From an uncultured Dehalococcoidia bacterium (GTDB taxonomy: Bacteria; Chloroflexota; Dehalococcoidia; Dehalococcoidales; UBA1222), in assembly GCA_903844845.1 (NCBI GenBank), contig CAIMVG010000021.1, positions 70,992-134,991 on the forward strand: a stretch of DNA of 64,000 nucleotides. Reading direction: 5' to 3'. Position numbers and translations under genes: made by a program. Below are positions 7,933-36,791 of the stretch, one piece after another. Position 1 is the stretch's first letter; the number at the start of each line of letters is the position of its first letter. Below the pieces are notes generated by a model. That model did not search any database, had not been told where the DNA came from, and was given only the letters and a program-made list of their open reading frames with translations.

Positions 7933-9159
7933 CTAAACCGAGCTTGTGCGGAAACGCGCCACCGCGATGATGGCGAAGGCCAGCCCGAACCCGGCGAGGG
8001 CCAGCATACCGGGGACCACGTCGTGAAAAGTGCCGCCGTAAAGCAGGAGCTTGTTGAAGGAGGTGGTCGCCCATCCGTGCGGGGTGAACAATGCCATGTT
8101 CTGCATCCATTGGGGGGTGATGAACAACGGCCACCAGCACCCGCCGAGGGGGGCTAAAATCAGGGACGACAGCACGCCGATGGAACTGGCCGCCCTTTCG
8201 GTTTTGACCAGGGTACCCAGCATCAGGCTGAAGGCGGCCGCCATCAGCGTTACCAGCAGGGAGATAAGCACAACAACGAGTGGTTCGCTCCCCAGCTCGA
8301 GGTGGTAGAGGAATATCCCGACCCCCCAGAAGATGATTATCTGCACCAGTCCTTTGAGGACGGTGCCCACGTAGATCCCCCCGAGGATCGAGTTACGGCT
8401 GACCGATGAAGAAAGCAGCCGTTCCAGGGTCTGGTTCTGGCGCTCGCGCACCAGCCTTTCGGCCGAGAGCGCCGCCGTGAAGAATACGAACATCACGAGG
8501 TAGCCGGGGATGACCCAGTTGGCAGGGTTGGAGGCCTTGATATCACCCACCTGCTGGACCGAGGCCTGCACCAGACCGGCTGCTGCAGATGCGCTCCCCG
8601 CGTATATCCGGGCCAGTACGGCCGGGATGTCGGCCGCGCGCCCGCTCTGCGCCAGGATGCTCGCTGCGGCATTGGCTTCAACTTCCCTGGCTGCGATGTC
8701 TGCAGAAAGGCCGGCCGCCATCCCGTCCAGCGCGGCGCGTATGTCCTGGTTGGCCGGGTCTACCACCACGTCTAGCACGGATGCCTCGCCTGCGTAAACG
8801 TTCTGGGTGAAATCAGCCGGGAAGGATATGAACCCCTTTATCTTTTTTTGGTCGATCTGGGCCCGGGCGTCATTGTAATCCTGTATCCAGATGACCTGAG
8901 GCTGTCCGGGCTGAAGTGCCGCGACGTCCGCAGTCTGCAGGGAAGAGACGATATTGTAGCTGAGGCTCCCGGCAGCCTCCTGCGTGGTGACATACAGGGT
9001 CAGCCTGGTGTCCTGCGCTCCCGCCCCCTGGAACAGGAAATAGAACAATGTCACGAAGAAAAACGGGAACCCGATGCTGAATATCAGCGCCGCCCTGTCG
9101 GATGAGAATATCTTGAGTTCCTTGATGGCGATGTACCAGGCGTTTTTGATCTGTTTCAT
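7933..9159 (-). CDS. ABC-2 type transporter permease
   Basis: 408 aa: N-terminal TM, large extracytoplasmic loop, C-terminal multi-TM block. Lies in an operon with a second permease and an ATPase. Confidence 0.8.
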   Translation of the reverse strand: MKQIKNAWYIAIKELKIFSSDRAALIFSIGFPFFFVTLFYFLFQGAGAQDTRLTLYVTTQEAAGSLSYNIVSSLQTADVAALQPGQPQVIWIQDYNDARAQIDQKKIKGFISFPADFTQNVYAGEASVLDVVVDPANQDIRAALDGMAAGLSADIAAREVEANAAASILAQSGRAADIPAVLARIYAGSASAAAGLVQASVQQVGDIKASNPANWVIPGYLVMFVFFTAALSAERLVRERQNQTLERLLSSSVSRNSILGGIYVGTVLKGLVQIIIFWGVGIFLYHLELGSEPLVVVLISLLVTLMAAAFSLMLGTLVKTERAASSIGVLSSLILAPLGGCWWPLFITPQWMQNMALFTPHGWATTSFNKLLLYGGTFHDVVPGMLALAGFGLAFAIIAVARFRTSSV

Positions 9160-9163
9160 CGCT

Positions 9164-10342
9164 TTACCTTTGCCCCGATACGGCTGAAAAAAGCCTGCGG
9201 CTGATAAGAAGGGCGAAGACGGTGACTCCCGCCAAAATGATGAAGGGTACGCCCACGTCGGCGAACGACCCGCTACGGGCCACCAGAGCCTTGAAAGCCT
9301 GGTTGGCGTAGGTGTTGATAGAGAACCGGCTGAGAGTGTAAATAACGGTCCCTTTCGTCAGCGTGAAGAAGGTGCCCCCCAGCATGACGGTGCCCATGGT
9401 GAAGAAAACCGCGATCCAATTGGCTGAGTCGGGCGTCCGCGCCACCGAAGCGATAAGCATCCCCACGGCCCCGCCGGCCGCGGCGAAAACCAGTGAGAGC
9501 CCGATCACTTCAAGGAAGGAGAGCGGGGTGAAGATATGGAAAACCGCGTAGGACAATACAAGCAGGATGACCGTCTGCACGAAGCCGCGCCCCATGCCGG
9601 CCAGGAATTTGCCGGTGAAGAGCTGACTGGTCGTGAGCCGCGTTGTGAGCAGCCTTTCAAGCGTCCCCTTGCGTTTCTCTTCCGCGAAAGCCCTGGCGCC
9701 GATGGTGATTGAGAAGAGGACGTACATCGTTATGATGCCCGGAAGGAACTGGCCGACCGGGTCCGGGAGGCTGCCCGTAAGGTCTTCCCTGATCGAGACA
9801 CTGGGGGAAGTTTTTTCCGTCGCCACGGCCTGCTGCACGGTGTTGAAAATCACTGAAGTCGATATCCCTGTGCCGTCAAGCGCCTGGCTCACGACAGCCT
9901 GCACCTGGAAACCCATATTCAGGTCCGAGATAGCCGCGTTTTCGATGCTGTAGACTATCTGGCCTTCCTGACCGCCGTTGCCGCGCTGTTTGAACGTGAT
10001 TTGGGCCGGCTGCCCTGCAGCCAGTTTGGAGCTGAAATCGGCGGGTATTACCATCAACTGTATGATGTCGGACCGCCCGAGTTTGACTTCGGCGTCGCTC
10101 GCTTTAAGTATCTTTACCGTCAGGCTGTTATTGTGTTCAAGCGTGTTCAAAAGAGATTGTGCGAAAGGGCCGTTGTCCTCGTTCACGATGTTGGCGGTGC
10201 CGTGAAAGAGGTTCTGGCCTCCGAATGCGCCGTAGATGAGCGCGAAAGTGACCACGGGGAGCAACAGGCTGAAAGCCAGGTCCCCCCTGTCCTGCAGATA
10301 AGATTTTATCTCGCGCAGCGCGATCGCCAGTGCGTTCTTCAT
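9164..10342 (-). CDS. ABC-2 type transporter permease
   Basis: 392 aa with the same architecture as the downstream paralog. 4-nt gaps on both sides indicate operon coupling. Confidence 0.8.
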   Translation of the reverse strand: MKNALAIALREIKSYLQDRGDLAFSLLLPVVTFALIYGAFGGQNLFHGTANIVNEDNGPFAQSLLNTLEHNNSLTVKILKASDAEVKLGRSDIIQLMVIPADFSSKLAAGQPAQITFKQRGNGGQEGQIVYSIENAAISDLNMGFQVQAVVSQALDGTGISTSVIFNTVQQAVATEKTSPSVSIREDLTGSLPDPVGQFLPGIITMYVLFSITIGARAFAEEKRKGTLERLLTTRLTTSQLFTGKFLAGMGRGFVQTVILLVLSYAVFHIFTPLSFLEVIGLSLVFAAAGGAVGMLIASVARTPDSANWIAVFFTMGTVMLGGTFFTLTKGTVIYTLSRFSINTYANQAFKALVARSGSFADVGVPFIILAGVTVFALLISRRLFSAVSGQR

Positions 10343-10346
10343 CTTT

Positions 10347-11096
10347 TCAGTCCCGCAGACTTCGGCCCGTAAGGTTGAGGAAGACGTGCTCCAGGGTTAC
10401 GGTGTCGGGGTTGCCGATCTTCTTCTTTAATTCGTACGGCGAGTCCATGGCGATGACCTGCCCGCCGTCGATGATGGCCACGCGCTTGCACAGGTGGTCG
10501 GCTTCCTCCATGTAATGGGTGGTGTATAGCACCGTGATCCCCTGCTTTTGCAGGTTCTGGATGGTTTCGAATATCTTGTTGCGCGACTGGGGGTCGATGC
10601 CCACCGTCGGCTCGTCCAGGAATAGCAGTTGGGGGTGGCCCATGAGGGCGATGGCCAGGTTGACGCGGCGCTTCATTCCGCCCGAATATTTCTGGATCTT
10701 GTCTTTCCCGCGGTCGCTGAGTTCCATCAGTCGGAGGTTGGAGGCGGCCTGTTCGCGGGCTTCCTTGCCGGAGAGCCCTGCCATCTTCCCGAAGAATATA
10801 AGGTTGTCGATGGCCGACATCTCTTCATAGAGGGCCAGGTCCTGCGGGCATATGCCTATAATCTCCCGGACTTTGTCGGCCTGGTTCTTGATGGAGAAGC
10901 CGCCGATGGCGGCGTCTCCCCCGTCGGGGGCCAGCACCGTCGCGAGCATGCGTATGGTGGTCGTCTTGCCGGCCCCGTTGGGGCCCAGCAGGCCGAAACA
11001 TTCACCCTTGTCGATGGTGAACGAAACCCCATCGACGGCTTTTTGCCCGTTGAAATCCTTGCGCAAATCCTTGACTGCCACGAATGGTTCGGACAT
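10347..11096 (-). CDS. ABC transporter ATP-binding protein
   Basis: Walker A GPNGAGKTTT, signature YSGGMKRR, Walker B LLFLDEPT. Confidence 0.92.
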   Translation of the reverse strand: MSEPFVAVKDLRKDFNGQKAVDGVSFTIDKGECFGLLGPNGAGKTTTIRMLATVLAPDGGDAAIGGFSIKNQADKVREIIGICPQDLALYEEMSAIDNLIFFGKMAGLSGKEAREQAASNLRLMELSDRGKDKIQKYSGGMKRRVNLAIALMGHPQLLFLDEPTVGIDPQSRNKIFETIQNLQKQGITVLYTTHYMEEADHLCKRVAIIDGGQVIAMDSPYELKKKIGNPDTVTLEHVFLNLTGRSLRD

Positions 11097-19638: not shown

Positions 19639-22059
19639 TTATCTGCCTCCCGCGTTGGCATCATAGTTGCCGCCGGTTTGTTGTGCGGCGCCTGACTGCG
19701 CCTGCATCTGCTGCATCTGTTCCTTCGTATAGGTAGCCGTTTTCCCGCCGGCTTCGGTGGTCGTGACCGACCCGTCTCTATGCAGGTCTATCCTGTTGCC
19801 TTGTTTATCTTGAACGTAACCGGAGCCATCGCTTTTGGTCTTCATCGTGGTGCCTTTCGAGTCCGTGATATCGGAGTTGCCCTGGGCGTCCCAAGAGCCT
19901 GCCCCGTCGGGGCCTTTCATCTCGCCTGAGCCGTCGCTCTTTATATCCTGGGTATTCCCCTTGTCGTCTTTGATGTGCATGTTCCCCTTGTCGTCAGTGG
20001 TCAGATCTAACGTTCCCTGTTCATCCTTGACGTGTGCATCGGTAACATTCCCGCCTTTTATATCGACCGAATTACCCTTTTCATCCTTGATATGCGCCTC
20101 GTTGCCGTCCTGGCTGATATCGGCGGTATTGCCCTTGTCGTCCTTGATGTGCATGGTGCCCTTATCGTCGGTGTTGAGGTCGACCGTTCCCTTGTCATCC
20201 TTGATATGTGCGCTGGTCACGTTGCCGTCCGAGTTGATATCGGCGGTATTGCCCTTGTCGTCCTTGATATGAATGTTGTCGGCATCGTCAGTGTTGACGT
20301 CCATCGTGCCGCCGTCTTCAGTTTTGATATGGCCGTTCATCTTGCCGTCGGCATCGGCATTGATGAAAGAGCCGTCATGGAACTTGGCCCTCAGTCCGTT
20401 CTCGTCGACCGTGATCTTATCGCCATCAGGAGTTTCGCCTTCGAAAGAGCCATCCTCCTTGATGGTTATTTTATTGCCCTGTTCGTCGGTCATGGAACCG
20501 CTCATATTCCCGTCTTTGTCGATTTTCATCGTGCCGCCGGGAGTGGAGATGCTGGCGGAACCATCCTTGTTCATCGTCATTACGGTACCGTCATATGTGG
20601 TTAAAGACCCTTCAGGGTAGCCCTCCTTCGGGCAATGCAGTGTACCGCCATATGGTGATTTTACGTCGATGCTGCCATCCTTATTGAGGGTGGATCCGCC
20701 TGTCCGGCCGTCCGGCAAGGTTATCTCTATTTCGCCGCTAGGTTTTGTGACCTGCAGCCCTGTTTCGGGGCTCCACTCTTTTTTCGTACCGTCGGGGTAA
20801 GACGTGTAACTACTGCCGTCGGGCCCCTCCGAATAGGTGGTGCCGTCGGGATAAATCGTGGTAACCACTTTGTCAGGAGTCCGGTTGATGATCGTCCCGT
20901 CCGGTTGCATCGTGTTGGTCGAGCCGTCCGGCAGGCGCTGGGATTGGAACTTGCCGTCAGCATCGTAGGTGCTTACGGTACCGTTCGGCTGGCGCACCGT
21001 GAGGGTTTTATCCGGGTTCGTTTCGACGGTGGTTCCGGGAGGGTCATCGGGGTTTGTCGAAGGCACCGGACCCTGCGGTACAGGGGGTTCTTCAGGCACA
21101 TCAGGCGGTTCTTCGGGGGGCGGCCCTATTTCGCCGGTCGCGATATCCTCTCCCGCACCTTCGGGTATTTCCGACTCGTCCCCGCCTTCGGCTGACTGCC
21201 CGACGATGACTCCGGCACTTACTCCGGCGACACCGCCCGAAAAGATACCTGCAAAGGTATGGTGAGCACTTTCAAAGTCGAATAGCTGCGACAAGAGAGA
21301 ATGCCCGGAAAATCCCGGGACATTGAGGTGGCTCAAGGCTCCCAAAGCTACCAGGGGAGCCAGAAGGCTCATCGCGCCGGATACCCTTCGGACCGGGGCC
21401 GGTTCAGCTTTGAGAAAGCGCGGCAGGACCCTGGCTACCAGCAGCAGGGCCAGCCCTATCCAGGCAAAATAATATCCCACGCCGAAGAAAGCTTTCAGGA
21501 TGTGCACCCCGGGCCTTTCGGTCAGGTAGCCCGTGATGGTCGGGGAAAAGGTGTAAAGAAGCAATCCTGAAAGGGCCAGCAGCCAGTGGTCTATCTTCTC
21601 GAGGTTCATGCTGCCCCAGTACATGAGTATGATGCTGATGAAAACGATGAAAACAAAACCCGGGAAAATATCGCCTGAGGGGCGGGAGAACAGATTTTTA
21701 GGTATGGCGAATACGATGCTTATGTATTTCGGAATCGTATTAGGCGTATGGCCGCTGGGAAGCGTCATGTAGTCGGCTATCGGTAAAAGGAAAGCTAAAG
21801 AGAAAAAGAGTTTGGCCACTACGGGGCATAGATCGTTAACCAGGTCCTGCCAGGGTTTGAGGTGGAAAGGCAGGCGGTTGAATAGTTTCAACACTACGAA
21901 CCCGGCCAGAGTGGCCACTAAAAGGCCGACGATGCCGCTGAGGAAATAGCCGACGATCAAGCCGGCGAGGATGGAGAGCAAGACAGGGAAACCTTCTTTG
22001 GTGAATAGCCATCTGGTGCGGGCTGCAAGTGACTGTTTGACGCCTGCATCTTTTTTCAT
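19639..22059 (-). CDS. Large membrane-anchored repeat protein (N-terminal multi-TM domain, Pro-rich linker, PDG/DDKGN repeat ectodomain)
   Basis: 806 aa. About 290 aa of hydrophobic helices, then the linker GPPPEEPPDVPEEPPVPQGPVP, then many short ..PDG(T/S).. beta-like repeats. Six or more HIKDDKGN(T/S).D units follow. Confidence 0.75.
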   Translation of the reverse strand: MKKDAGVKQSLAARTRWLFTKEGFPVLLSILAGLIVGYFLSGIVGLLVATLAGFVVLKLFNRLPFHLKPWQDLVNDLCPVVAKLFFSLAFLLPIADYMTLPSGHTPNTIPKYISIVFAIPKNLFSRPSGDIFPGFVFIVFISIILMYWGSMNLEKIDHWLLALSGLLLYTFSPTITGYLTERPGVHILKAFFGVGYYFAWIGLALLLVARVLPRFLKAEPAPVRRVSGAMSLLAPLVALGALSHLNVPGFSGHSLLSQLFDFESAHHTFAGIFSGGVAGVSAGVIVGQSAEGGDESEIPEGAGEDIATGEIGPPPEEPPDVPEEPPVPQGPVPSTNPDDPPGTTVETNPDKTLTVRQPNGTVSTYDADGKFQSQRLPDGSTNTMQPDGTIINRTPDKVVTTIYPDGTTYSEGPDGSSYTSYPDGTKKEWSPETGLQVTKPSGEIEITLPDGRTGGSTLNKDGSIDVKSPYGGTLHCPKEGYPEGSLTTYDGTVMTMNKDGSASISTPGGTMKIDKDGNMSGSMTDEQGNKITIKEDGSFEGETPDGDKITVDENGLRAKFHDGSFINADADGKMNGHIKTEDGGTMDVNTDDADNIHIKDDKGNTADINSDGNVTSAHIKDDKGTVDLNTDDKGTMHIKDDKGNTADISQDGNEAHIKDEKGNSVDIKGGNVTDAHVKDEQGTLDLTTDDKGNMHIKDDKGNTQDIKSDGSGEMKGPDGAGSWDAQGNSDITDSKGTTMKTKSDGSGYVQDKQGNRIDLHRDGSVTTTEAGGKTATYTKEQMQQMQAQSGAAQQTGGNYDANAGGR
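19930..20290 (-). repeat. Intragenic tandem repeats encoding HIKDDKGNTADI.(S/Q)DGN...-type units (about 19-21 codons each)
   Basis: Repeated DNA strings GCCCTTGTCGTCCTTGATGTGCAT / ATTGCCCTTGTCGTCCTTGATATG recur across this interval. The protein shows at least 6 consecutive units. Confidence 0.8.
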
Positions 22060-24030: not shown

Positions 24031-24966
24031 CTAATACTCGCTTTCGGGGTCAACGATTACCTTTTTCCCATGTGTCATATTCGCCAGATAGACGCCGCCT
24101 ATTACCAAGATTGTACCCGCGCTCTGGGCGACCGAGTATCCCTCTTTCAGGATGATGACCCCTGCCAGTATCGCCACCAGCGTCGCCAGTCCCGCGAAAG
24201 AAGAGGTCCGGTTGGTGCCGATGGCAGTCAGCGCGAAATTATACAGCAGGAAAGCGATGATGGAACAGCCTATACCCAGGTAGAGGATGGCTATCAGAAA
24301 CTCGTGGTTGTTGAACGGGAGCATCACAAAGGCTTTAAGTGAATCGTTCCGCGCGCTTTCCAAGAGTGCGAGGACGGTAAAAACCGCCGCCCCCATCGCC
24401 ATCATGGCATAGGTCTTCTCCGCACTGGAAAACTGTGTTGCCCTTTGAGCGTAAACGGAATAAAGGCCGTAGGAAACCACGGCGATGAGCAGCATCAGGT
24501 ACCCGAGGGGGTTGAAGGTCGCGCTCAAACCCTTGGCTGCCAGGATTAAAATGATGCCTGCGGTGGTGAGGCCCACGCCTCCAACCTGGAGTTTCGTGGG
24601 CGGTTGTTTCAACATGAAAGTTGAGAGCAGGAGTGCCCCGACAGGGATGCAGGCGATGATAGCGCCGCTTTCGGAGGCGGATGTCAACTTGATGCCGACG
24701 GTTTCGCCGATGAAATAGGAACCCGGCACGAAGACAGCCAGTAATAATAATGCTTTCAGTGATTTATTACGAAAATCCAGCTTCACGATGCGCAAGAGCG
24801 CAAGCAGGCTCATCACCAGGAGGGCGAGCACGAACCGCCACGCGAGGAGGGCAAGCGGCGATACGGTATCCGTCACCGTTTTGGTAAACATGAAGCTGAA
24901 GCCCCAGAGGACCTCGCAGGCGAGGACGGAGAGGATGCCGAGGGGCGTTTTATCTTTTAGAGACAA
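24031..24966 (-). CDS. EamA/DMT family transporter
   Basis: 311 aa, ten hydrophobic segments in two similar halves, typical EamA repeat architecture. Confidence 0.82.
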   Translation of the reverse strand: MSLKDKTPLGILSVLACEVLWGFSFMFTKTVTDTVSPLALLAWRFVLALLVMSLLALLRIVKLDFRNKSLKALLLLAVFVPGSYFIGETVGIKLTSASESGAIIACIPVGALLLSTFMLKQPPTKLQVGGVGLTTAGIILILAAKGLSATFNPLGYLMLLIAVVSYGLYSVYAQRATQFSSAEKTYAMMAMGAAVFTVLALLESARNDSLKAFVMLPFNNHEFLIAILYLGIGCSIIAFLLYNFALTAIGTNRTSSFAGLATLVAILAGVIILKEGYSVAQSAGTILVIGGVYLANMTHGKKVIVDPESEY

Positions 24967-25064
24967 ATATTAATTTCCTTTTAACGAATTTAATACTGAG
25001 CAAATGAAAAATTGCTTTGCTTTCGCGGTATCGAGGGCAATTGAAAATATTCGGTGATAATAAG

Positions 25065-26651
25065 TTAAATGCTGAGTCTTATGTTTTTTAATTCTTCATA
25101 TTGTCTGAAACATTTTTCCATCTCTTCGGCAGGAACATTTAAATTCTCGATGAACCAATTGTCCACGGTTTTCATAGCTAGAGCTCTTTGGTCTTTCAGA
25201 ATTAGGTCGTCGACTCTTGATTCAATGCCGTAAGGAAAAACAAAATTTTCGCCTAAAAAGACTAATGCTTTCTTTGCCGCAGACGGTTCTATCTTTAGCA
25301 CCCCACTTCCGTATGTCTTAGAATATATTTCAAAAGAAAGTTGGGACAATGAGCTGAGCATTGAGAACCGTATCCACCGTAAACTGAGGTCAATATTTTC
25401 AGTGTTCTTTAGATAAACTCCATGGACGTTATTTGTGCTATATATTTTGTCCGGATTCAAAACGATGGTCGGAGTTTCTTTAATCATATAAGGGAGAAAT
25501 GCATCGGGTGATTTCTTTGGTGCAATGCAATACCAAACATTTCTATTTTTACAATGAAGCCTTTTGGCATATCCTTCAACTACGCCTCGTTGTATGTATT
25601 TAGTGAGAGATTCAGAAAGTGGAATATTTTCTGGTATCTCTAAAATATAATCTTGTATGTTAATGGCAGAAATATCTTTGCATTTATACATATCCCGGGC
25701 TTTTCGGACGATTGGTTTAATGAAAGAATCCGGTATCCCCAATTCGGTGGCTTGTATTTTGTTAATAATGAAGAAATTATTTGCGCCAGTTACGGTGCCG
25801 ATTAAAACGTCCGTACATTTACCTAATGGCTGGAATTTGAGGAGATTTCTGAGTTTCTCCAAGCTCTTTGATTCTTTTCTAAATACCTGGAGATTTTCAA
25901 TTGTTGAATTTCCAACTGGAATGGTGCGCCACTTGACATCTCTGTCGGGAATCCCGCGTGAATTGCCGATTTGTATTTTATGAGACCGCGTTCCATATTG
26001 GTCTGCAAAGAGAAGGAGGATTCTTTCTTGGTTTGTATCAAACAATTGTTGTCCTATAACCGCAATTCTTATCTCTCCAAAATTCGCAAAAAGATATTCT
26101 TTGACGGGCCGAGAATATTCTGAATATAAGAACGACCATGGCAGAATTGCACCAAGACTGCCGTTTATCCTGATGTATTTAAGAGAATGTAATATAAAAT
26201 ATGCCCATAAATCACAGGTTTTTCTCACACATGTGGTGCTACTAACGAGCGTGTTTAAATATTTCTTTGTCTCTTTGGTTAATGAATGATGTCGAATATA
26301 TGGCGGATTCATAATGATTGCATCAAATTGGCTTGGTAGGTTGCAGTTCTTCAGATAAAAAAAATCTGTATTAGTTAAATTCCCAATCTCAACGGTTCGG
26401 TTGAGTAAATCCATAATTTTCTTTGGAGGTAGGTTGACGTCACATCCGAAAAGTTGCGTACTCGGATTCGGAGTTCCCAGTGATTCGAAGCGCTTGTGTG
26501 CGGCAAATAACAAGGCTCCATGCCCAAAACAGGGGTCAAATACCGTCGCATGCTCGTTTTTAATAGTATTGTATACCAGGTAGTCAGCTAAGGCTTCAGG
26601 TGTGAAATGAATTCCATCCTTTTTACGAGGGAGAGATTCAGACGTGGTCAT
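25065..26651 (-). CDS. N6-adenine DNA methyltransferase (gamma class, Eco57I/TaqI-like catalytic domain plus C-terminal target-recognition region)
   Basis: Motif I VFDPCFGHGALL, motif IV IIMNPPYIRHH, and a C-terminal GSGVLKIEPS-type segment. Start taken at the ATG at 26651 (MTTSESL), which forms a TAATG overlap with the upstream stop. An alternative start is at 26681. Confidence 0.85.
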   Translation of the reverse strand: MTTSESLPRKKDGIHFTPEALADYLVYNTIKNEHATVFDPCFGHGALLFAAHKRFESLGTPNPSTQLFGCDVNLPPKKIMDLLNRTVEIGNLTNTDFFYLKNCNLPSQFDAIIMNPPYIRHHSLTKETKKYLNTLVSSTTCVRKTCDLWAYFILHSLKYIRINGSLGAILPWSFLYSEYSRPVKEYLFANFGEIRIAVIGQQLFDTNQERILLLFADQYGTRSHKIQIGNSRGIPDRDVKWRTIPVGNSTIENLQVFRKESKSLEKLRNLLKFQPLGKCTDVLIGTVTGANNFFIINKIQATELGIPDSFIKPIVRKARDMYKCKDISAINIQDYILEIPENIPLSESLTKYIQRGVVEGYAKRLHCKNRNVWYCIAPKKSPDAFLPYMIKETPTIVLNPDKIYSTNNVHGVYLKNTENIDLSLRWIRFSMLSSLSQLSFEIYSKTYGSGVLKIEPSAAKKALVFLGENFVFPYGIESRVDDLILKDQRALAMKTVDNWFIENLNVPAEEMEKCFRQYEELKNIRLSI

Positions 26652-27430
26652 TATTGATATGCAATCTCGTGCAGACAGCACTTATCTTTTGCCATCACAG
26701 CATTAACCAAACTTACATAATTCACCCACCAAACTTTTTGGCTTTTGGACACCAAATTGTTCCAAGATCGCTCTTCAACCATGTCATTTAGCGGTGTATC
26801 AAATTCTCTTAAAGCCAAATCCAAAACTAATAAATAATCCATAGGAAAATATTGGATCCGCGGGTTTTCTAGAAATGGCTCAAGGCAATAATGCGAATTC
26901 ATGCCATTAGGTATGGAATTTGGAGGATTCCCACCGTATTGAAGATGGGAAGGGGGTATTTTTTGGTTGCCCGGTTGGAGATCAAAATGGAATTTTCTAA
27001 CAATCCTCTTTCCGGTTTTTTGTGAAACTCGGCAGCAAGAATCTCCGGGAGTAATAAGCCCCTCTGTTTGGAACGTGACCCAAAACGCGAACGAAGACCG
27101 AGTTATAGATTTCTTATCGCCTGTGATTACGCCTCCAATAATAATTGTGGGGTGATGTTGATTTAGCTTTTTGTTCAATACGGGAATTTCGATTAGTGGA
27201 ATATTGCAATGGAAATTGTTGCCTGTTTCTGACTTCAATTTAGCATAGGCTACGGCAATAGAAGCAGCAGGGCTCCCGGTGATTGTAGCGTATCGTTCTT
27301 CATTGATACTTCGAAACTCAGCAGAGCATTGTAAGTAATTTAGAGATTCCAACAGTTGGGTTTGGGCTTCATCACGATCCACTTCGCATGTCTCAGTTTT
27401 GTTGGTCAGTTTATTAGTTAAATCTGGCAT
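26651..27430 (-). CDS. Orphan 259-aa protein (candidate effector or specificity component of the island operon)
   Basis: Uninterrupted ORF, AT-rich like its neighbours, coupled on both sides. I recognise no family motif. Confidence 0.65.
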   Translation of the reverse strand: MPDLTNKLTNKTETCEVDRDEAQTQLLESLNYLQCSAEFRSINEERYATITGSPAASIAVAYAKLKSETGNNFHCNIPLIEIPVLNKKLNQHHPTIIIGGVITGDKKSITRSSFAFWVTFQTEGLITPGDSCCRVSQKTGKRIVRKFHFDLQPGNQKIPPSHLQYGGNPPNSIPNGMNSHYCLEPFLENPRIQYFPMDYLLVLDLALREFDTPLNDMVEERSWNNLVSKSQKVWWVNYVSLVNAVMAKDKCCLHEIAYQ

Positions 27431-27438
27431 ATTCGAGC

Positions 27439-28473
27439 CTAATTTTTTCTGAACGACCTAAATCCGTCAAAGTAGAGGTATCGTTGTTTCGAAATATCAG
27501 GTTGACTGCATCTTATGTGGACCGGAGATTCCTTTTTGTTATCGAGGTCCATCCCGACGGTCTCCGGGAATGGCTCGGAACAGACCGCACACCTACTGCG
27601 TTGTTCCGCTTGGATATCGAATATTTTGTTGGAAATGGACCAAGGTTCATCTGAATCCACGTCAGCGGCTCCAGGTTCCGAAAACAGTAATTGAGTTACT
27701 TCATTGACCCACCATAAAGATTTATGAGTACCATTAAAAACACCCGAATATTTGGCTTTGCTAAATATTTCGGCGATTTTTTCGAAACCCACCTCATTAA
27801 CACCCAATAAAGTTGAGATTCGCAAACTGTCCGAGAGAATGCCTGGCACAACCATCAATTGTCTTCGGACCCATCGAGAAAATGAAATTGTATTCCCCTC
27901 GCCTTCAGAGTCGGTGTCGGGAGTTAACCCATTTCTTAAATTATCTGGTAAAGTTAAAGATATTAACTTTTCACAAGAGTCTGGTACGCGCAACAAATCA
28001 ATTAAAGCTTTCACGTCACCTCTCGGGGTGTCGGCTCTTATTGTTTTGTAATCCAATGCATCGTAATAAAGGGATTGTTCATTTTTTTGGTATCTCTGCA
28101 GTTCTTTAACAGTTAAAATTCTATCAAATACACTTTCGGTTGCTTGTGACCACTTCGAAAGGTCTGCGTATCCGTTTTTATTTTCTTGGTTTGTCACTAG
28201 ATAAATTGGGTGTTCCGGGAATTTTTCTCTTATTAAAGCCCCTGGAGTGAGCCCGTGATCTTGGAAAAAAACATTTTCGGAATTTGGTTTCTGATTCAGA
28301 TATAAATCAACCAAGAAAATGTCCGGGAGATCCGATCCCTTCATCGTCGTTAGAGATGATTTGAATCGAGTTGGATGTGTCCATACTATTCTCAACAGGT
28401 CTGAGCTTAAATTCTGGGATTCCTCAGTTTGGTCTTGATCATCAATCCAAAAAGCCAGTAATTTGGTGCTCAT
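27439..28473 (-). CDS. REC-like (response-regulator receiver) protein with a possible HTH and a C-terminal Cys/His cluster
   Basis: D11 D12 (FWIDDQD), D56 (FLVDLYL), T94 (YLVTNQ) and K107 (DLSKW) reproduce the spacing of the CheY D12/D13/D57/T87/K109 quintet. LRISTLLGVNEVGFEKIAE is HTH-like. CAVC....(x21)..HIRC lies near the C-terminus. Confidence 0.7.
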   Translation of the reverse strand: MSTKLLAFWIDDQDQTEESQNLSSDLLRIVWTHPTRFKSSLTTMKGSDLPDIFLVDLYLNQKPNSENVFFQDHGLTPGALIREKFPEHPIYLVTNQENKNGYADLSKWSQATESVFDRILTVKELQRYQKNEQSLYYDALDYKTIRADTPRGDVKALIDLLRVPDSCEKLISLTLPDNLRNGLTPDTDSEGEGNTISFSRWVRRQLMVVPGILSDSLRISTLLGVNEVGFEKIAEIFSKAKYSGVFNGTHKSLWWVNEVTQLLFSEPGAADVDSDEPWSISNKIFDIQAEQRSRCAVCSEPFPETVGMDLDNKKESPVHIRCSQPDISKQRYLYFDGFRSFRKN

Positions 28474-30743
28474 GGAAATAATACCTCAATGCATGTTTTC
28501 CAAGGGGTCTCTGGTTTTGTGAATCGTATTGAGCCATTATAGGATTCCACAGTTGTTTTAACTATGTTAAGGCCTATTCCGCTACCCCTACCGAGCGCAG
28601 CAAGGGAATCGTTTGCGACCCTCCGTTTTAATGAAGAATATAAATTTCCGGCAGGGTCTGCGTTAAGGGGTTTGAAAACTTCCTCCCAGTATTTTTCTTC
28701 CAGCCCAATTCCATCATCGCAAACCGCTAAAACCTTTTTTCCATTTTGCGAGTATACTTTGACATAAATATTACGGCCGTTACCCGAAAGGTTCGCTTTT
28801 ACCGCATTGGAAATCAAGTTCACGATTATGGAATATATTTCCACTTCAAGGATTGGGCCGATTTTAAAATCTTCAGGGATTTCGACGACTGGTTTGTTAA
28901 TTCCATACTCTTCGATCAAATATTGGAACCCCATCATCACTTCATCGACAATTGGTTTTAACAGTATTAGCTGCCTTTTTGTTTCGCCAGATGTTCTACT
29001 CAATGTTCCAAACAATTGAATCTGTTGGTCTAGCCTGTCACGGGTTTTTCGAAGAGATTGTGCAAATAATGAAAAATCGTGCTGATATATTTTGGGTACA
29101 TCGTTCAACATTCTATCTATCGTGTTGGCGTGAGTATCTAATCTGGCCATCAGGTTTTTAATTTCATGAGAAAAATTGAACATCAAAGAACCTGTAGAGG
29201 CGACAGCTTTTAATATCCCAAGGTAAATTTCTGATATTGAATAGGATTGCTTTACGAATTCGCTTGCTGCATTCAATCTAATTTCAGCTTTGCGTCGTTG
29301 TTCTTCAGGTAAAGTTTTAAGAGCTGTTTTAGCTTCATCAGAAATCAATGTTAACGCTTTTAGGGCTATTGGGGTCGTTTCTTCGGTTGGGGAAAAGCTG
29401 AAATTTGTCTTATCACCGAGCAATCCTTCCAATTCCTCGGCTTTTTTATACAATTCTCTTCTTCCTGTGACAAGCAAAAATTCATTGTAATGTAAAACCA
29501 TCCATTGAATAGAAAGTCGAAGAACCGTAACAAGATCTTCGAATGATGAGTCCTCAATAAACCCTTCCCTATCGAGTTTGACCTGCAAGGGCATCGATGG
29601 ACCAGAATTTATCACAACATTCCCGTAAAGTTGTTGGTTTCGCGGGGAATTGAGCATTGCCCTCAGCGGGTCTACCCCCAATTTAGAAGCTATTTCGCTC
29701 AACCTGTCATCTGTTCGCCCTTTGCGCCTCGCGACGTCTGCATCGATGCGTAACCAATCGTTTCCTGCATCTCCATAAGGGTACACTCGGAATCCATCGA
29801 GATAAACTCGAACTCCACCTTGTTCTGTAAGAAGATCCAAGATACCTGTTTTTGTGATAATTCTAGTGTCTCTTAACAGGCTCTTTTGCATTGGAAGCCA
29901 GGCAATTTCAAAGGTTATTCCTTTTAAGTTTTCGAACGCTTCATCCAGTCCAAATTCTTTTAACCCGATTTCCTTTGCTTCGAGCTTCAAATTACAGATG
30001 CCTTGATTATTTATTTCTCCTTCAAGTTTCCCCCAACCTGCGTCTAATAATTGCCTTGATAAAATTCCCTCACCACTGGGAAATTCCGGGGCCTCCAGTT
30101 TTATTTCGAACCCCGGGTCTTCCTCAAAACCTTCTCTTCTCACGCCTTTAACGATGGAAAGTCCTAAAACGTGTCTTCTGAGAAGGTTGAAATCGCTGTC
30201 AGTCCAACGCTCCACAAGGTTGGTCAAAATCAAACTTAACCCAGTTTTCCCGTTTATTAACAAGTCTCGTGTATAGACACATGGTATTTGGGTTAGAGTG
30301 GTGCCCGGTTTGAAATCCCCCCAATTGAAAGTTACCTTTGTCTTTTCTAAACCTCTTTTTTCGGACGTCGTTCCAACTGTCTCCATCACCAGCTTTTTTG
30401 CCAGCCTGCGACAGGCGAATCGCCCTACACCCTTGTTACCGGTTTTACGTCTCCCGTATTTTGGTGATACGGGCGCGCGAACTTTTGAAGTCGTTGCTAT
30501 CCTCATCCAATAGTCACTTACCTCTTGGAAAGACATACCGTGCCCATTGTCTGAGATGTGAATTTCGCCTTGGTTAGGGCCTTTTTTTGCCTTGATAAAC
30601 TTGATGACAATTTCCGTTGCATCAGCGTCATAAGCGTTTTTGATGAGTTCTGCCAACGCAACATAGTTCCTGGTGACCAATCGCTCACCAAGTTCGCCTA
30701 ATAATTGGCTGTCAACGCTAAATGATAATTCAGTCTTAGGCAT
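28470..30743 (-). CDS. Dual Bergerat-fold protein: N-terminal MORC/MutL/Hsp90-like GHKL ATPase plus C-terminal histidine kinase (H-box plus HATPase_c)
   Basis: N-terminal module: ELIKNAYDADA (N box), ISDNGHGMS (G1), GNKGVGRFA (G2). C-terminal module: FSHEIKNLMARL (H box), IVNLISNAVKA (N), CDDGIGL (G1), GRGSGIGLNIV (G2). Start taken at the ATG at 30743 (MPKTEL). The track start at 30812 would add a hydrophobic 23-aa extension. Confidence 0.8.
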   Translation of the reverse strand: MPKTELSFSVDSQLLGELGERLVTRNYVALAELIKNAYDADATEIVIKFIKAKKGPNQGEIHISDNGHGMSFQEVSDYWMRIATTSKVRAPVSPKYGRRKTGNKGVGRFACRRLAKKLVMETVGTTSEKRGLEKTKVTFNWGDFKPGTTLTQIPCVYTRDLLINGKTGLSLILTNLVERWTDSDFNLLRRHVLGLSIVKGVRREGFEEDPGFEIKLEAPEFPSGEGILSRQLLDAGWGKLEGEINNQGICNLKLEAKEIGLKEFGLDEAFENLKGITFEIAWLPMQKSLLRDTRIITKTGILDLLTEQGGVRVYLDGFRVYPYGDAGNDWLRIDADVARRKGRTDDRLSEIASKLGVDPLRAMLNSPRNQQLYGNVVINSGPSMPLQVKLDREGFIEDSSFEDLVTVLRLSIQWMVLHYNEFLLVTGRRELYKKAEELEGLLGDKTNFSFSPTEETTPIALKALTLISDEAKTALKTLPEEQRRKAEIRLNAASEFVKQSYSISEIYLGILKAVASTGSLMFNFSHEIKNLMARLDTHANTIDRMLNDVPKIYQHDFSLFAQSLRKTRDRLDQQIQLFGTLSRTSGETKRQLILLKPIVDEVMMGFQYLIEEYGINKPVVEIPEDFKIGPILEVEIYSIIVNLISNAVKANLSGNGRNIYVKVYSQNGKKVLAVCDDGIGLEEKYWEEVFKPLNADPAGNLYSSLKRRVANDSLAALGRGSGIGLNIVKTTVESYNGSIRFTKPETPWKTCIEVLFP

Positions 30744-31023
30744 GGAAAAAGCTCTCCCAGCAAAGATAACAAGTCTGAGAATGAATATATTCCAAATTGG
30801 GGTTGCTTTCAAGCATGTTGTTTTTAGGGACTAAAATCTAAAAGAAGAATTGGAATAACGATGTTTGATTTTCACAAATCGTACTTTTTGGTACATTATT
30901 AAACATCGCGAGTCTAGCGGTGTAGTTTATTGAATAGAAATTCTGACGGTTAAAGACTTTAGTTGGGTCGCTCAAATGCAGGATTTCGTCTCGTTGTAAA
31001 ATCCTTACAGGAGGGAAATACAA

Positions 31024-31515
31024 ATGCAAAGGATAACCCCGAATCTGTGGTTCGATAACCGGGCAGAAGAAGCTGCCAATTTCTACGTCTCCATCTTCCC
31101 CAATTCCAAAATCAACGGGATCTCTCATTACGGGGAAGGAAACGCGAAGGTGTCGGGTATGAAAAAGGGCACCGTGATGACCGTCACTTTCGAACTCGAC
31201 GGCCAGCAGATGATGGCCCTCAACGGCGGCCCGGTTTTCAAGTTCAACGAAGCCGTCTCCCTGGTCGTCAATTGCATGACCCAGGACGAGATCGACCATT
31301 ACTGGGATTCCCTGTCGCAGGACGGCGACCCGAAAGCGCAGATATGCGGATGGCTGAAGGACAAATATGGAGTGTCCTGGCAGGTGGTCCCCGTCGCTCT
31401 TGGCGAGATGATGCAGGATGAAGACGCTAAGAAAACGGATAGGGTCATGGCTGCTTTGTTGAAGATGAAAAAAATCGATATCGCCACCCTGAAGAAAGCC
31501 TATCTCGGGAAGTGA
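31024..31515 (+). CDS. VOC family protein (PhnB / 3-demethylubiquinone-9 3-methyltransferase-domain type)
   Basis: MQ.ITP.LWFD..AEEA..FY.SIF.NS.I............G.V.TV.F.L.GQ....LNGGP.F.F.EA.S....C..Q.E.D..W..L...G....CGWLKDK.G.SWQ..P. Confidence 0.82.
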   Translation: MQRITPNLWFDNRAEEAANFYVSIFPNSKINGISHYGEGNAKVSGMKKGTVMTVTFELDGQQMMALNGGPVFKFNEAVSLVVNCMTQDEIDHYWDSLSQDGDPKAQICGWLKDKYGVSWQVVPVALGEMMQDEDAKKTDRVMAALLKMKKIDIATLKKAYLGK

Positions 31516-34129: not shown

Positions 34130-34510
34130 TCAAGCGTGCGTTAATACCGGGCCTGCGCATTGGGCGATTTTGTCCAGAAGCTCCCTGAGATTGAACGGCT
34201 TGGTGACATAATCGGCGGCGCCCACGTTCTTGGCAAATTGTTTGTTCAGCTGGAAACCCACCGCCGTCAACATGATGATAGGTATCCCGGCAGTCTTCGG
34301 GTTGGATTTCAGGCTGGATGCTACCGCGTAACCGTCCATCTCGGGCATCATGATATCCAGCAGGATGACATCCGTTTTTTGGCGGGCGGCTATGTCCAGC
34401 CCGTCTTTGCCGTTTGACGCTGAAAGCACGTTGTAGCCGTAAGCAGTAGCCATGTCCCGTACGAGTTTGACGGCCATCGGGTCATCATCGATAACAAGCA
34501 GGTTCTTCAC
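34130..34510 (-). CDS. Single-domain response regulator (REC only)
   Basis: LLVIDDDP ... DVILLDIMMPEMDG ... PIIMLTA ... K receiver signature, 126 aa. Confidence 0.9.
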   Translation of the reverse strand: MKNLLVIDDDPMAVKLVRDMATAYGYNVLSASNGKDGLDIAARQKTDVILLDIMMPEMDGYAVASSLKSNPKTAGIPIIMLTAVGFQLNKQFAKNVGAADYVTKPFNLRELLDKIAQCAGPVLTHA

Positions 34511-36791
34511 ATAGTTCTCCTTTTTTTATCGGCAAAGTAAAATAGAAACGGCTGCCTTTGTTTTTTCCGTCGCTCTCCACCCAGATATTTCCTCCGTGAG
34601 TTTCGACGATACGTTTGCTGATTGCCAGTCCCAATCCGGTGCCCGGTGTTTTAGAAATCAGGCCGCTCTGGACTTGATAGAAATCGGTAAAAAGTTTATC
34701 GATGTGTTCGGGAGGAATCCCGATGCCGTTGTCGGCCACGCTGAAAACGAGGGTGTTATCGTCGTTGCGGCCCTGGATATTGATGCTGCCGCCATCCGGC
34801 GTAAATTTCACGGCGTTGGAGAGCAGATTGAACATAACCTGTTTGATCCTGCGCTCGTCTATCGAATATTCACGGGTTTGCAGTTCCGGGGATACCTGAA
34901 CATTAATCTTGATCCCTCGCCTGGCGGTTTTTTCCTTTACCATCAGGAGGCTGCTGTTTATCAGGTTCTGGATGTTTACGGGTGAAAATTGCAGTTCCAC
35001 CTTGCCTGCTTCTATCTTCGCAAGGTCGAGTACGTCATTGATGAGTTCCAGTAAATGCCGCCCGCTGGTCAGGATGTCATCGATATATCCGGATTGCTTT
35101 TCATTGAGAGGGCCGTATAATTTCTGTTCGAGAAGCTGGGAGAACCCCAGGATAGCACTGAGCGGGGTGCGGAGTTCGTGGGACATACTGGCCAGGAAAT
35201 CGCTCTTGGCTTGGTTCGAAGCATTGGCGGCCACCACAGCCTGTTCGAGCTGTTCCGTTCTCTCGGCAACCTTGGCTTCCAATCTCAGGTTAAGCAATTT
35301 GAGGTCCTGGTTCAGTCGTGCCAGGGACTCGGCCGCATTTTGACGCTCCGTGTTATCGATGAGAGTGCTCACGAGTTGTTTTCCGTTGGCATCGTCAGTT
35401 TGAACTATAGTATTCTGGGATGCCCAGAATTTCATGCCGTTATTGCGTTTCCAGATGGTTTCGAAATTTTTGACCACCCCGTCTTGCTCCAACTTCTGAA
35501 ACAGGCGTGTTCTTTCTTCAGGATCGGCATACAGCGACCACGCATAAAGGTCCTGGATCTCATTTTCCCCATGAAAACCGAACATCTCCAGGGCGGTCTT
35601 GTTTGCACTCAGTATCTTGCCGTTGGACAAGGACGTCACTATCCCGATAGGGGCATTTTCCACTAGGTTGCGGAACTTGGCTTCGGATATCCTGAGGGCC
35701 TCTTCGGCATGCTGGCGCTCGATGAGTTCGGTTTCGAGCACTGCTCTCCGGGTAGATTCGGCTTCAGCTTCCTTTTGCCGGGTGATGTCGTGCAGCATCA
35801 CCAGGTACCCGCTGATGCAGTTCCGCGTGACGATGGGAGAGGTGCGGAGTTCATAGCAGCGCTTGTCGGGGTTTCCATCTGGCGAGTGGATAATGATTTC
35901 CCTGGAATCGGCCTCGGCTTGACTCGGTTGTGGTTGGCCCGGCAAAACACGCTCATACGCCTGCCCGATGACGTCACGCGTCCCGCTGCCGAGAATAGCC
36001 CTTGCTACGTAATTGAGTTCAATCACGCGCAGTTCGCTATCCAATACCATCACGCCGTCGGACATGCTTTTAAAAACTACGTCGTAGGCCACCGGCATGA
36101 TATCCAGCAGGTGGAAGCGGGAAAGGCCCCAAAAAAAGGCGGCCCCGGTGATGGTAAAGGCAAATGGCGTCGGATCGATGGCCAGCACCGTGGTGCCGAG
36201 GTAAAAGACGTTGGCCACCCAGGGCACCGCGGTCCCCAGCAGGACGACGACGAGCTGTTTCCGGTAGATGCCTGACGATCGCGTGAACGAGCTGTACAGC
36301 ATGACCGTGCCAGCCAGGATGAGGCCGTAAGAGTAGGCTGTGTGGGCCCAGAACCAGTAACCATGAGTGACGGCGTCAACCGGAGGTGAGACTGATGTGT
36401 TTAGCCAGATGTCCTTCCACATCAGGTGGGTGGTGCCATTCGTCCAGACGTTTATCAGAGTGATTGCCGGGAGGATGCAAAGCAGGATCAGCCTGCCCCG
36501 CGTAAGCCACTTTTCACGCCCTGTGTATTCCAGCGTGAATACAAACCAGAAGACAGGCATGACGGTGATGCCGAAATAAGACAGGTTTATGCAGACTTTC
36601 TTGGCGTCGAGGCTGAGGGCGGAATATTCGGCCAATGCTGCCAGAGACCACCATGCCAGTGAAAGCATTAGAACCAGAAAGGACAGCGCCATAGTTTTTT
36701 TTCTGAATTTCCTCAATCTCAAAGCGAGCAGGGCCGCTCCGCAAAAAGCCGTCAGGGGCAACAGTGTATTGACGTTAATAATGAAGCGCAT
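34485..36791 (-). CDS. Sensor histidine kinase (N-terminal 7TM domain, two PAS-like domains, HisKA, HATPase_c)
   Basis: About 230 aa of seven hydrophobic helices; PAS-like segments; H box FLASMSHELRTPL; N box FNLLSNAVKFT; G boxes DNGIGI and GTGLGLAI. Confidence 0.9.
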   Translation of the reverse strand: MRFIINVNTLLPLTAFCGAALLALRLRKFRKKTMALSFLVLMLSLAWWSLAALAEYSALSLDAKKVCINLSYFGITVMPVFWFVFTLEYTGREKWLTRGRLILLCILPAITLINVWTNGTTHLMWKDIWLNTSVSPPVDAVTHGYWFWAHTAYSYGLILAGTVMLYSSFTRSSGIYRKQLVVVLLGTAVPWVANVFYLGTTVLAIDPTPFAFTITGAAFFWGLSRFHLLDIMPVAYDVVFKSMSDGVMVLDSELRVIELNYVARAILGSGTRDVIGQAYERVLPGQPQPSQAEADSREIIIHSPDGNPDKRCYELRTSPIVTRNCISGYLVMLHDITRQKEAEAESTRRAVLETELIERQHAEEALRISEAKFRNLVENAPIGIVTSLSNGKILSANKTALEMFGFHGENEIQDLYAWSLYADPEERTRLFQKLEQDGVVKNFETIWKRNNGMKFWASQNTIVQTDDANGKQLVSTLIDNTERQNAAESLARLNQDLKLLNLRLEAKVAERTEQLEQAVVAANASNQAKSDFLASMSHELRTPLSAILGFSQLLEQKLYGPLNEKQSGYIDDILTSGRHLLELINDVLDLAKIEAGKVELQFSPVNIQNLINSSLLMVKEKTARRGIKINVQVSPELQTREYSIDERRIKQVMFNLLSNAVKFTPDGGSINIQGRNDDNTLVFSVADNGIGIPPEHIDKLFTDFYQVQSGLISKTPGTGLGLAISKRIVETHGGNIWVESDGKNKGSRFYFTLPIKKGELCEEPACYR

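Follow-up and report, generated by a model that had tools for sequence, protein, structure and literature searches.

What does a protein do that begins like a two-component response regulator and continues into a tail that no known output class describes? This question was raised by the open reading frame (ORF) at positions 27439-28473 of the 64,000-nucleotide (nt) stretch of DNA analysed here (hereafter the window), which comes from an uncultured Dehalococcoidia bacterium (assembly GCA_903844845.1, contig CAIMVG010000021.1). The frame had been singled out in a first-pass annotation made from the sequence alone, and it is indeed present as a minus-strand gene encoding 344 amino acids (aa). Our analysis indicated that its product, referred to below as the regulator, is probably a genuine phospho-accepting partner of the neighbouring kinase and part of a defence-type cassette, and that its tail is an uncatalogued response-regulator output domain. 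As to function, we tentatively rank first the reading in which the protein would be the response regulator of a restriction-modification-like defence cassette and would transcriptionally auto-induce its own operon.

Two-component signalling joined to restriction-modification enzymes has only recently been shown to act in phage defence, in a single Pseudomonas system named Ambrosia (bioRxiv 10.1101/2025.09.30.679545), and the window holds a second, much more widely distributed form of an Ambrosia-type system. As this class of system has already been published the finding is not categorically new; what is new here is a variant, widespread in bacteria and archaea, whose output domain and partner protein have both so far been uncatalogued.

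The N-terminal receiver domain

Relatives of the regulator were first visible as 12 sequences in a word-indexed protein search, none of them with a Pfam domain, and a profile search with the broad family alignment in the word-indexed database gave almost no further relatives. An exhaustive profile search returned 760 cluster representatives (50% identity) at an expect value (E) of ≤1e-3 and 432 at E ≤1e-10, nearly all of them 320-360 aa in length and aligned over their full length. The family includes members from Proteobacteria, Chloroflexota, Desulfobacteria-like bacteria, haloarchaea, Methanoperedens and Bathyarchaeota. Conservation was counted in an alignment of 148 relatives that are 20-50% identical to the target, and the counts below refer to this alignment where 148 sequences are given.

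The first-pass annotation had described a CheY-type catalytic quintet consisting of D11, D12, D56, T94 and K107. All five residues occur at the positions given; the two acidic residues, the phospho-acceptor and the threonine stood up to comparison with the family, whereas K107 did not. D56, on which the phospho-acceptor assignment depends, is kept in every one of the 148 relatives, D11 and D12 are kept in 144 and 145 of them, and position 94 is always occupied by a hydroxyl residue (Thr in 73, Ser in 75). A receiver-only profile aligned residues 2-98 of Escherichia coli CheY, placing D12/D13/D57/T87 of CheY on D11/D12/D56/T94 of the regulator, and this alignment stops before beta5. The conservation observed across the 148 relatives implies that most of the annotated residue pattern is not due to chance.

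The structure of the regulator was predicted with AlphaFold2 from the 148-sequence alignment, giving a final model with a predicted local distance difference test score (pLDDT) of 96.5 and a predicted template modelling score (pTM) of 0.92, the five models ranging from 96.0 to 96.5 in pLDDT; it replaced an earlier, poor model built from 12 sequences (pLDDT 60.7). Residues 1-132 are modelled as a (beta-alpha)5 flavodoxin-like fold, as had been expected of the N-terminus, with the elements b1 (5-10), a1 (16-22), b2 (27-32), a2 (34-43), b3 (52-56), a3 (75-84), b4 (90-94), a4 (109-115), b5 (118-121) and a5 (122-132). Foldseek, queried with the whole regulator model, gave 90 matches in the PDB at E ≤1e-3, and the top 50 listed are all receivers or receiver-containing proteins, the best matches including PorX, RcsB, HupR, CheY and PmrA, with template modelling (TM) scores of 0.6-0.67 (about 0.65) when normalised to isolated receivers. 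Among the top 50 matches in the BFVD viral structure library receivers and kinases likewise predominate, and both lists are dominated by receiver matches. By sequence, the family profile matches solved PDB receivers (best E 6.9e-6), and the Pfam Response_reg model (PF00072) is matched by 11 of 72 relatives, the best at 2.6e-9. On the predicted structure, the N-terminus of the regulator is thus a true CheY-like receiver. The earlier suggestion that this protein is the cognate phospho-acceptor of the upstream kinase is supported by the fold, by D56 and by the adjacent, translationally coupled kinase gene; the phosphotransfer itself we infer.

A conserved quartet in place of the quintet

K107 was rejected as the quintet lysine, as the position is occupied by K, E, V or G even among the 12 closest homologues and shows no preference among D, E, K and S across the 148 relatives. 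The residue borders a subfamily-specific insertion (columns 97 and 101-105), where most relatives have gaps. Since beta5 comprises residues 118-121 in the model, K123 becomes the sole candidate for the role of CheY K109. Of the 12 close homologues, 11 carry K or R at this position; in the remaining one (P0003) an E stands there and the next residue is K. Arg15 was also considered as a substitute for the lysine and was dropped, since only a weak inverse association was found across the relatives. The conserved part of the receiver quintet is here a quartet. Elsewhere in the window, an ordinary two-component pair encodes a 126-aa CheY-like receiver (34130-34510, minus strand) with the full quintet including the motif YVTKPF, in contrast to beta5 of the regulator, adjoining a membrane PAS histidine kinase (34485-36791, minus strand).

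Three observations weigh against a phosphorylation-driven regulator. A lysine at positions 122-124 is absent from 111 of the 148 relatives and the proline of the usual Lys-Pro pair does not follow; K123 itself is modelled at the first turn of alpha5 and not at the end of beta5; and the target has no Pfam Response_reg match at E ≤1. Together with a CheY alignment that ends before beta5, they would suit a pseudo-receiver, a fold that is unphosphorylated or for which phosphorylation is irrelevant, bridging a kinase-like ATPase to ORF3 or DNA. We regard this alternative as highly improbable. The acidic pocket and the Ser/Thr position are 97-100% conserved, which is hard to explain without phosphoryl chemistry, the H-box histidine of the kinase is invariant, and a D60A substitution in AbrC, the homologous Ambrosia receiver, abolishes defence.

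The output domain

The tail (residues 133-344) is modelled at pLDDT >90. It had been described as belonging to no recognised response-regulator class, and this description was borne out, as no OmpR, NarL, NtrC, LytTR, GGDEF or HD-GYP model matched it. The regulator tail gave no match in Pfam, NCBIfam, PADLOC or PHROGs, Pfam and NCBIfam gave none in 72 relatives, and a tail-only profile found nothing credible among PDB sequences. As the tail has no database match, the fold assignments that follow are drawn from its predicted topology.

Residues 195-255 are predicted to follow the canonical order of a winged helix. The elements in the model are helix 195-206, strand 213-214, helix 216-222, a four-residue turn that contains the invariant G224, helix 227-240, strand 241, a loop and strand 254-255, and residues W201, G211, G224, Y242, G244, F246, W254 and W255 are conserved in 96-100% of the 148 relatives. 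The helix-turn-helix-like stretch picked out in the first-pass annotation, LRISTLLGVNEVGFEKIAE, begins at residue 217 and fits the segment of this predicted winged helix that runs from helix 2 through the turn into helix 3.

The Cys/His cluster reported near the C-terminus corresponds to C295, C298, H319 and C322, and the CCHC ligand set is conserved in 128 of 148 relatives. Most of the ligand variants (CSKY, CSRY, CTKY and the like) lack three ligands at once, a joint loss that is the pattern expected of a structural zinc site. In the AlphaFold2 model the site is treble-clef-like, with a C295-x2-C298 knuckle, a beta-hairpin (305-309/315-318) and H319-x2-C322 at the start of a helix. Weak similarity to PHD fingers (PHF6 ePHD, E 0.16; PHD_4 in one relative) offers a mere hint of a treble-clef finger. 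The tail adds an output class to the census of two-component response regulators.

The cassette, its kinase and its promoter

Four tightly coupled genes are arranged in the order kinase, regulator, ORF3 and methyltransferase (Table 1). The regulator ATG overlaps the kinase TGA as ATGA, in agreement with the first-pass annotation, ORF3 starts 8 nt beyond the stop codon of the regulator, and the methyltransferase ATG overlaps the stop codon of ORF3 (TAATG). According to the ORF list and the GC profile, these four genes alone make up a low-GC island (25065-30812; GC 0.39-0.42 against 0.53-0.55 in the flanks), and no flanking direct repeats were found at the island ends. The cassette is a horizontally acquired, restriction-modification-like, conserved mobile unit.

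Table 1. Coordinates in the window of the four cassette genes, their domains and the cassette promoter.
Feature	Position	Strand	Basis
Regulator gene (target), 344 aa	27439-28473	minus	ORF call
Receiver (REC) domain, residues 1-132	28078-28473	minus	AlphaFold2 model, Foldseek, family profile
Phospho-acceptor D56 codon	28306-28308	minus	Conservation and CheY alignment
Helical middle region, residues 133-290	27604-28077	minus	AlphaFold2
Predicted winged helix-turn-helix, residues 195-255	27709-27891	minus	AlphaFold2 topology
CCHC zinc site, residues 292-325	27499-27600	minus	AlphaFold2 and conservation
Kinase gene, 757 aa, soluble hybrid GHKL ATPase/histidine kinase	28470-30743	minus	Gene callers' ATG 30743
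Kinase N-terminal HATPase_c_3	30366-30662	minus	Pfam 5e-24
Kinase H-box His526 codon	29166-29168	minus	Homologue alignment
Kinase C-terminal HATPase_c catalytic domain	28476-28844	minus	Pfam 1.9e-22
ORF3, 259 aa, uncharacterised	26651-27430	minus	ORF call
Eco57I-type N6-adenine DNA methyltransferase, 528 aa	25065-26651	minus	Pfam, PADLOC
Sigma-70-type promoter TTGAAA-17 nt-TATATT	30784-30812	minus	Consensus match

The kinase N-terminus matches the BbrUII/HgiDII restriction-enzyme N-terminus and MutL in NCBIfam, and the REBASE-derived PADLOC REase_II models match it through the GHKL domain only. Residues 520-693 align to the dimerisation and histidine phosphotransfer (DHp) and catalytic domains of Thermotoga maritima HK853. 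The H-box histidine His526 (FSHEIKN) is retained in all of 15 kinase homologues, together with the N, G1 and G2 boxes of the two ATPase domains. The cassette provides a small, defined and testable unit for asking how a MORC-like ATPase-kinase senses infection. In the metagenome-assembled genome (MAG) GCA_041643025.1 the kinase gene is a pseudogene, interrupted by an in-frame TAA (L001 7962-7964, also in L002) that corresponds to GAA in the near-identical Methanoperedens locus L007; the regulator, ORF3 and methyltransferase of this MAG are intact.

The gene callers place the kinase start at ATG 30743, and the TTG "start" of a mechanically called 780-aa ORF is the -35 box of a promoter. The promoter agrees with the consensus at 10 of 12 positions and is the best promoter-like site in 24800-31100. 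Loci L004 and L008 also have the motif TTGAAA-N17-TATATTCA ahead of their kinase genes, about 110 nt and about 15 nt, respectively, upstream of the mechanically called kinase starts; the promoter, part of its spacer included, has been kept in these two loci although kinase identity at the protein level is only 55-59%.

ORF3 and the methyltransferase

ORF3 had no match in Pfam, NCBIfam, PADLOC, PHROGs or the PDB, its family profile gave nothing credible against the PDB, and all of its database relatives are named "hypothetical". The protein carries invariant H148, D150, H162 and Q164 within the motif FHFD...P.SH.Q.GG, and D198 and D204 are conserved. No HNH match was found, nor any restriction endonuclease model match in PADLOC, Pfam or NCBIfam; in size and position the gene fits a type II restriction endonuclease. 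Judged from these sequence features, ORF3 is a candidate effector and may represent a new effector or nuclease family. Two of the four cassette parts thus stand without a catalogued family, namely the 210-aa winged-helix/zinc output domain and this H-D-H-Q protein, the latter adding a candidate effector family.

The methyltransferase matches the Pfam models N6_Mtase, Eco57I and M_Eco57I_C and, over its full length, PADLOC MTase_II (7.9e-68). It is of the gamma class, has NPPY at residue 115 and includes a specificity domain of its own. All related loci whose sequence extends far enough contain an Eco57I-family methyltransferase.

Relation to known systems

Ambrosia is a validated anti-phage system of Pseudomonas that comprises the XRE regulator AbrR, the N6-methyltransferase AbrA, the HATPase/histidine kinase AbrB, the 209-aa receiver AbrC and the HNH nuclease AbrD, and it has been reported only in Gammaproteobacteria (10.1101/2025.09.30.679545). 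Defence is abolished by AbrC D60A, by AbrB N40A and by mutation of the nuclease or methyltransferase, reporters placed in the cluster are induced upon infection, and methylation by AbrA does not protect phage DNA (10.1101/2025.09.30.679545). We compared the cassette with the sequences of the preprint supplement, measuring similarity by BLASTP or profile. Over 351 aa, the window kinase and AbrB share 27.6% identity (BLASTP, AbrB 12-347, E 1.5e-24), and both kinases have two GHKL-type ATPase domains. The family receiver profile matches AbrC 1-121 (E 7.5e-8 in a three-sequence database), a match that includes the P-D-x-x-L-x-D and P-I-Y-x-x-S/T motifs. An N6-adenine methyltransferase in the operon and the kinase-receiver-effector order are common to both systems.

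The differences are equally clear. AbrC has 209 aa, and the 344-aa regulator carries a winged-helix and CCHC module that AbrC lacks. ORF3 was rejected as an AbrD-type HNH nuclease, as it has no similarity to AbrD and no HNH match and the island encodes no other HNH protein. The island also lacks an AbrR-type XRE/HipB-like gene, and the window family is found in archaea, Chloroflexota and Desulfobacteria-type bacteria besides Proteobacteria. With a homologous kinase and receiver, another output domain and fourth protein and no XRE gene, the window cassette is best described as an Ambrosia-like system. It is absent from PADLOC v2 (2023), which accordingly does not flag such loci.

A broader precedent is the survey of Bellieny-Rabelo et al. 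(PMC8011034, 2021), which linked Response_reg_2/HEF_HK pairs to restriction-modification genes and paraMORC ATPases. The window pair shares with them a soluble kinase composed of HATPase_c_3, DHp and HATPase_c, an adjacent receiver-like protein without other known domain and a restriction-modification neighbourhood. The published pairs mostly adjoin C5-cytosine methyltransferases and Vsr, and a conserved beta5 lysine is reported for Response_reg_2 (PMC8011034), whereas the window family always occurs with an Eco57I-type N6-adenine enzyme and mostly lacks that lysine. Membership of PF19192 or PF19191 was rejected, as neither model matches the target pair: PF19192 (Response_reg_2) gave no target match at E ≤1 and none in 72 relatives at E ≤0.01, the presence of this model in the Pfam copy used being unconfirmed, and PF19191 (HEF_HK), a model present in the library, gave no match to the window kinase at E ≤1. 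The kinase of the Paraburkholderia locus shows a sub-threshold HEF_HK match (E 0.0079; 17.1 bits, the cut-off being 24.1). Two unmatched models and this single sub-threshold trace place the window family as a sister group and not as a member.

Compared with OmpR/PhoB regulators, the target shares the (beta-alpha)5 fold, the acidic pocket, the beta4 Thr/Ser, an upstream HisKA-type kinase and a winged-helix-like output. It differs from them in having no match to Trans_reg_C or another output domain and no beta5 Lys-Pro, and in possessing a beta4-alpha4 loop insertion, an extra helical region and a zinc finger, while its kinase has a MORC-like ATPase in place of a membrane or PAS sensor. Detocs, reported by Rousset et al. 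in 2023, likewise relies on a histidine kinase and an effector protein containing a receiver for anti-phage defence; it reportedly senses through a TPR domain, has a receiver that acts as a buffer, ends in an enzymatic (PNP) output and includes no methyltransferase. Detocs and the other known defence families were rejected for the present cassette, as PADLOC gave no match beyond REase_II and MTase_II for its four proteins.

A plainer reading is housekeeping control of restriction-modification, in which ORF3 would be an ordinary type II endonuclease cognate to the methyltransferase and the kinase-regulator pair would behave like a controller (C) protein, setting the timing or level of restriction versus methylation after transfer or under stress with no phage sensing. 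The MTase_II model matched by the methyltransferase is a REBASE-derived type II model. ORF3 is about as long as a type II endonuclease and lies where one would be expected, and these enzymes are commonly devoid of recognisable sequence similarity, which favours this reading; the decay of the kinase in one lineage with the rest of the cassette intact also agrees with it. A regulatory link of this kind was proposed in the 2021 survey (PMC8011034). We nevertheless consider it quite improbable: C proteins are small helix-turn-helix proteins for which a 757-aa dual-ATPase kinase with conserved boxes would be a costly replacement, the non-protective methylation by AbrA shows that Ambrosia is not a classical type II system, and the kinship of the N-terminal GHKL domain with BbrUII/HgiDII suggests a role of the kinase in DNA handling and not only in regulation.

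Distribution and gene partnership

The kinase-regulator-ORF3 core was found in the same order in 13 further independent bacterial and archaeal loci. Methanoperedens, Bathyarchaeota, Halomicrobium, Chloroflexia, Dehalococcoidia, Pseudomonas, Paraburkholderia and Rhizobium are among the sources, and the flanks are unrelated. Kinase and regulator genes are always adjacent and their NTGA overlap is near-universal: of the 12 homologous junctions examined, 10 have it, and the Chloroflexia locus L008 (ATGC) and the Halomicrobium locus L011 (8-nt overlap) depart from it. The full four-gene order occurs in metagenome contigs and MAGs as well as in Methanoperedens, Chloroflexia and Dehalococcoidia genomes. 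A scan of JGI metagenomes added one locus, on a contig that ends after ORF3, and no relative was found among IMG/VR viral contigs. In a Bathyarchaeota genome the kinase, regulator and ORF3 are accompanied by a convergent Eco57I/TaqI_C methyltransferase, and in more distant versions of the core, on Halomicrobium, Paraburkholderia and Rhizobium plasmids, on a Pseudomonas chromosome and in another MAG, an Eco57I-family methyltransferase is located upstream, or is divergent or convergent to the core.

Some of these loci add features of their own. On the plasmid of Halomicrobium sp. LC1Hm (NZ_CP044130.1, L011) an ORF3-like frame (8975-9811, plus strand; family profile E 5e-31) lies directly after the annotated response regulator and is absent from the plasmid gene table. 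The plasmid of Rhizobium sp. TH2 (L014) encodes an extra GIY-YIG nuclease (10112-11041) directly after its ORF3-like gene, from which it follows that ORF3 may not be the nuclease in every version. The Paraburkholderia locus carries a small helix-turn-helix gene.

Regulator and ORF3 vary together. The regulators of Paraburkholderia, Rhizobium and Pseudomonas possess the middle domain and lack the zinc finger, and across the loci zinc-finger regulators pair with a long ORF3 (245-279 aa) and finger-less regulators with a short one (211-235 aa). ORF3 is absent from all three loci whose regulator lacks the middle domain and whose kinase is of the same type, namely those of Campylobacter pTet plasmids, an Enterobacter mori plasmid and a Bacteroides finegoldii plasmid. 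The last of these encodes a kinase, a 209-aa receiver, an HNH nuclease and an Eco57I methyltransferase, a layout intermediate between Ambrosia and the window cassette. The receivers of Campylobacter coli pTet (L013, 8180-9175) and Enterobacter mori (L015, 8144-9217) share a different C-terminal domain that ends in ...PFLKDI[VI]ARFS.YYARQG.P and represents another unclassified output module. The Campylobacter kinase-receiver pair adjoins a dcm cytosine methyltransferase on tetracycline-resistance conjugative plasmids.

The co-occurrence of the middle domain and ORF3 in 14 of 14 loci weighs against auto-induction, as a partnership between the two proteins fits it at least as well. It can be interpreted as a sign that the phosphorylated regulator would be a DNA-binding or targeting subunit that recruits or activates ORF3, a new kind of nuclease or some other effector, on DNA. 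A His-Asp phosphorelay would thereby gate restriction, with the methyltransferase either labelling self DNA or generating the substrate. Besides the paired variation of finger and ORF3 length, this interpretation draws on the fixed order and coupling of kinase, regulator and ORF3 against a methyltransferase that shifts in position and strand. The invariant H, D, H and Q of ORF3 are typical of a metal-dependent active site, and a near-consensus promoter in a cassette devoid of a repressor gene points to constitutive expression, so that control would have to act on the proteins. The co-occurrence could, however, reflect shared descent of one cassette lineage and not contact, and ORF3 has no recognised nuclease fold or motif in Pfam, NCBIfam, PADLOC, PHROGs or the PDB. 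Proteins that combine a receiver with a winged helix are overwhelmingly transcription factors, and the only tested homologue, Ambrosia, reports induced expression. We rank this explanation second and hold it to be somewhat doubtful.

Proposed mechanism of auto-induction

Auto-induction by the regulator was ranked first because a receiver followed by a winged helix is the classic layout of a transcription factor and because the homologous system shows induced expression. We infer a pathway in which phosphotransfer would lead to DNA binding by the tail, transcription would be the regulated step and the cassette would serve in phage defence. The soluble kinase would sense an intracellular cue, likeliest invading DNA or infection, through its N-terminal MORC/MutL-like GHKL module, would autophosphorylate His526 of its HK853-like DHp domain and would pass the phosphoryl group to Asp56 of the regulator. 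Phosphorylation might then switch the winged-helix and CCHC-zinc module to a DNA-binding state in which, by analogy with Ambrosia, the regulator would raise transcription of its own operon. Basal expression would come from the conserved promoter (Table 1), and upon induction the ORF3 effector and the methyltransferase would be made in a burst.

Several features of the locus fit this scheme poorly, in addition to the incomplete quintet and the constant company of ORF3. The winged-helix assignment is based solely on the order of secondary-structure elements, and a tail of 210 aa exceeds a plain DNA-binding domain in size. A near-consensus promoter is atypical for activator-dependent control, no conserved operator was found by aligning the promoter regions, and all four genes form one translationally coupled operon without an Ambrosia-like XRE repressor.

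A more specific proposal, which we consider unlikely, is that restriction is gated post-translationally. The MORC-like ATPase-kinase would sense or load on foreign DNA and phosphorylate the regulator, whose Trp-rich winged helix and zinc finger would read DNA, possibly including its N6-methyladenine status, and ORF3, as a nuclease family of uncatalogued fold, would thereby be switched on. If true, such gating would represent a restriction system of a new mechanistic type common to bacteria and archaea.

Other features of the window

Outside the cassette, an 806-aa ORF (19639-22059, minus strand) combines a membrane-like N-terminus with an extended series of degenerate repeats that follow the pattern HIKDDKGN..D.

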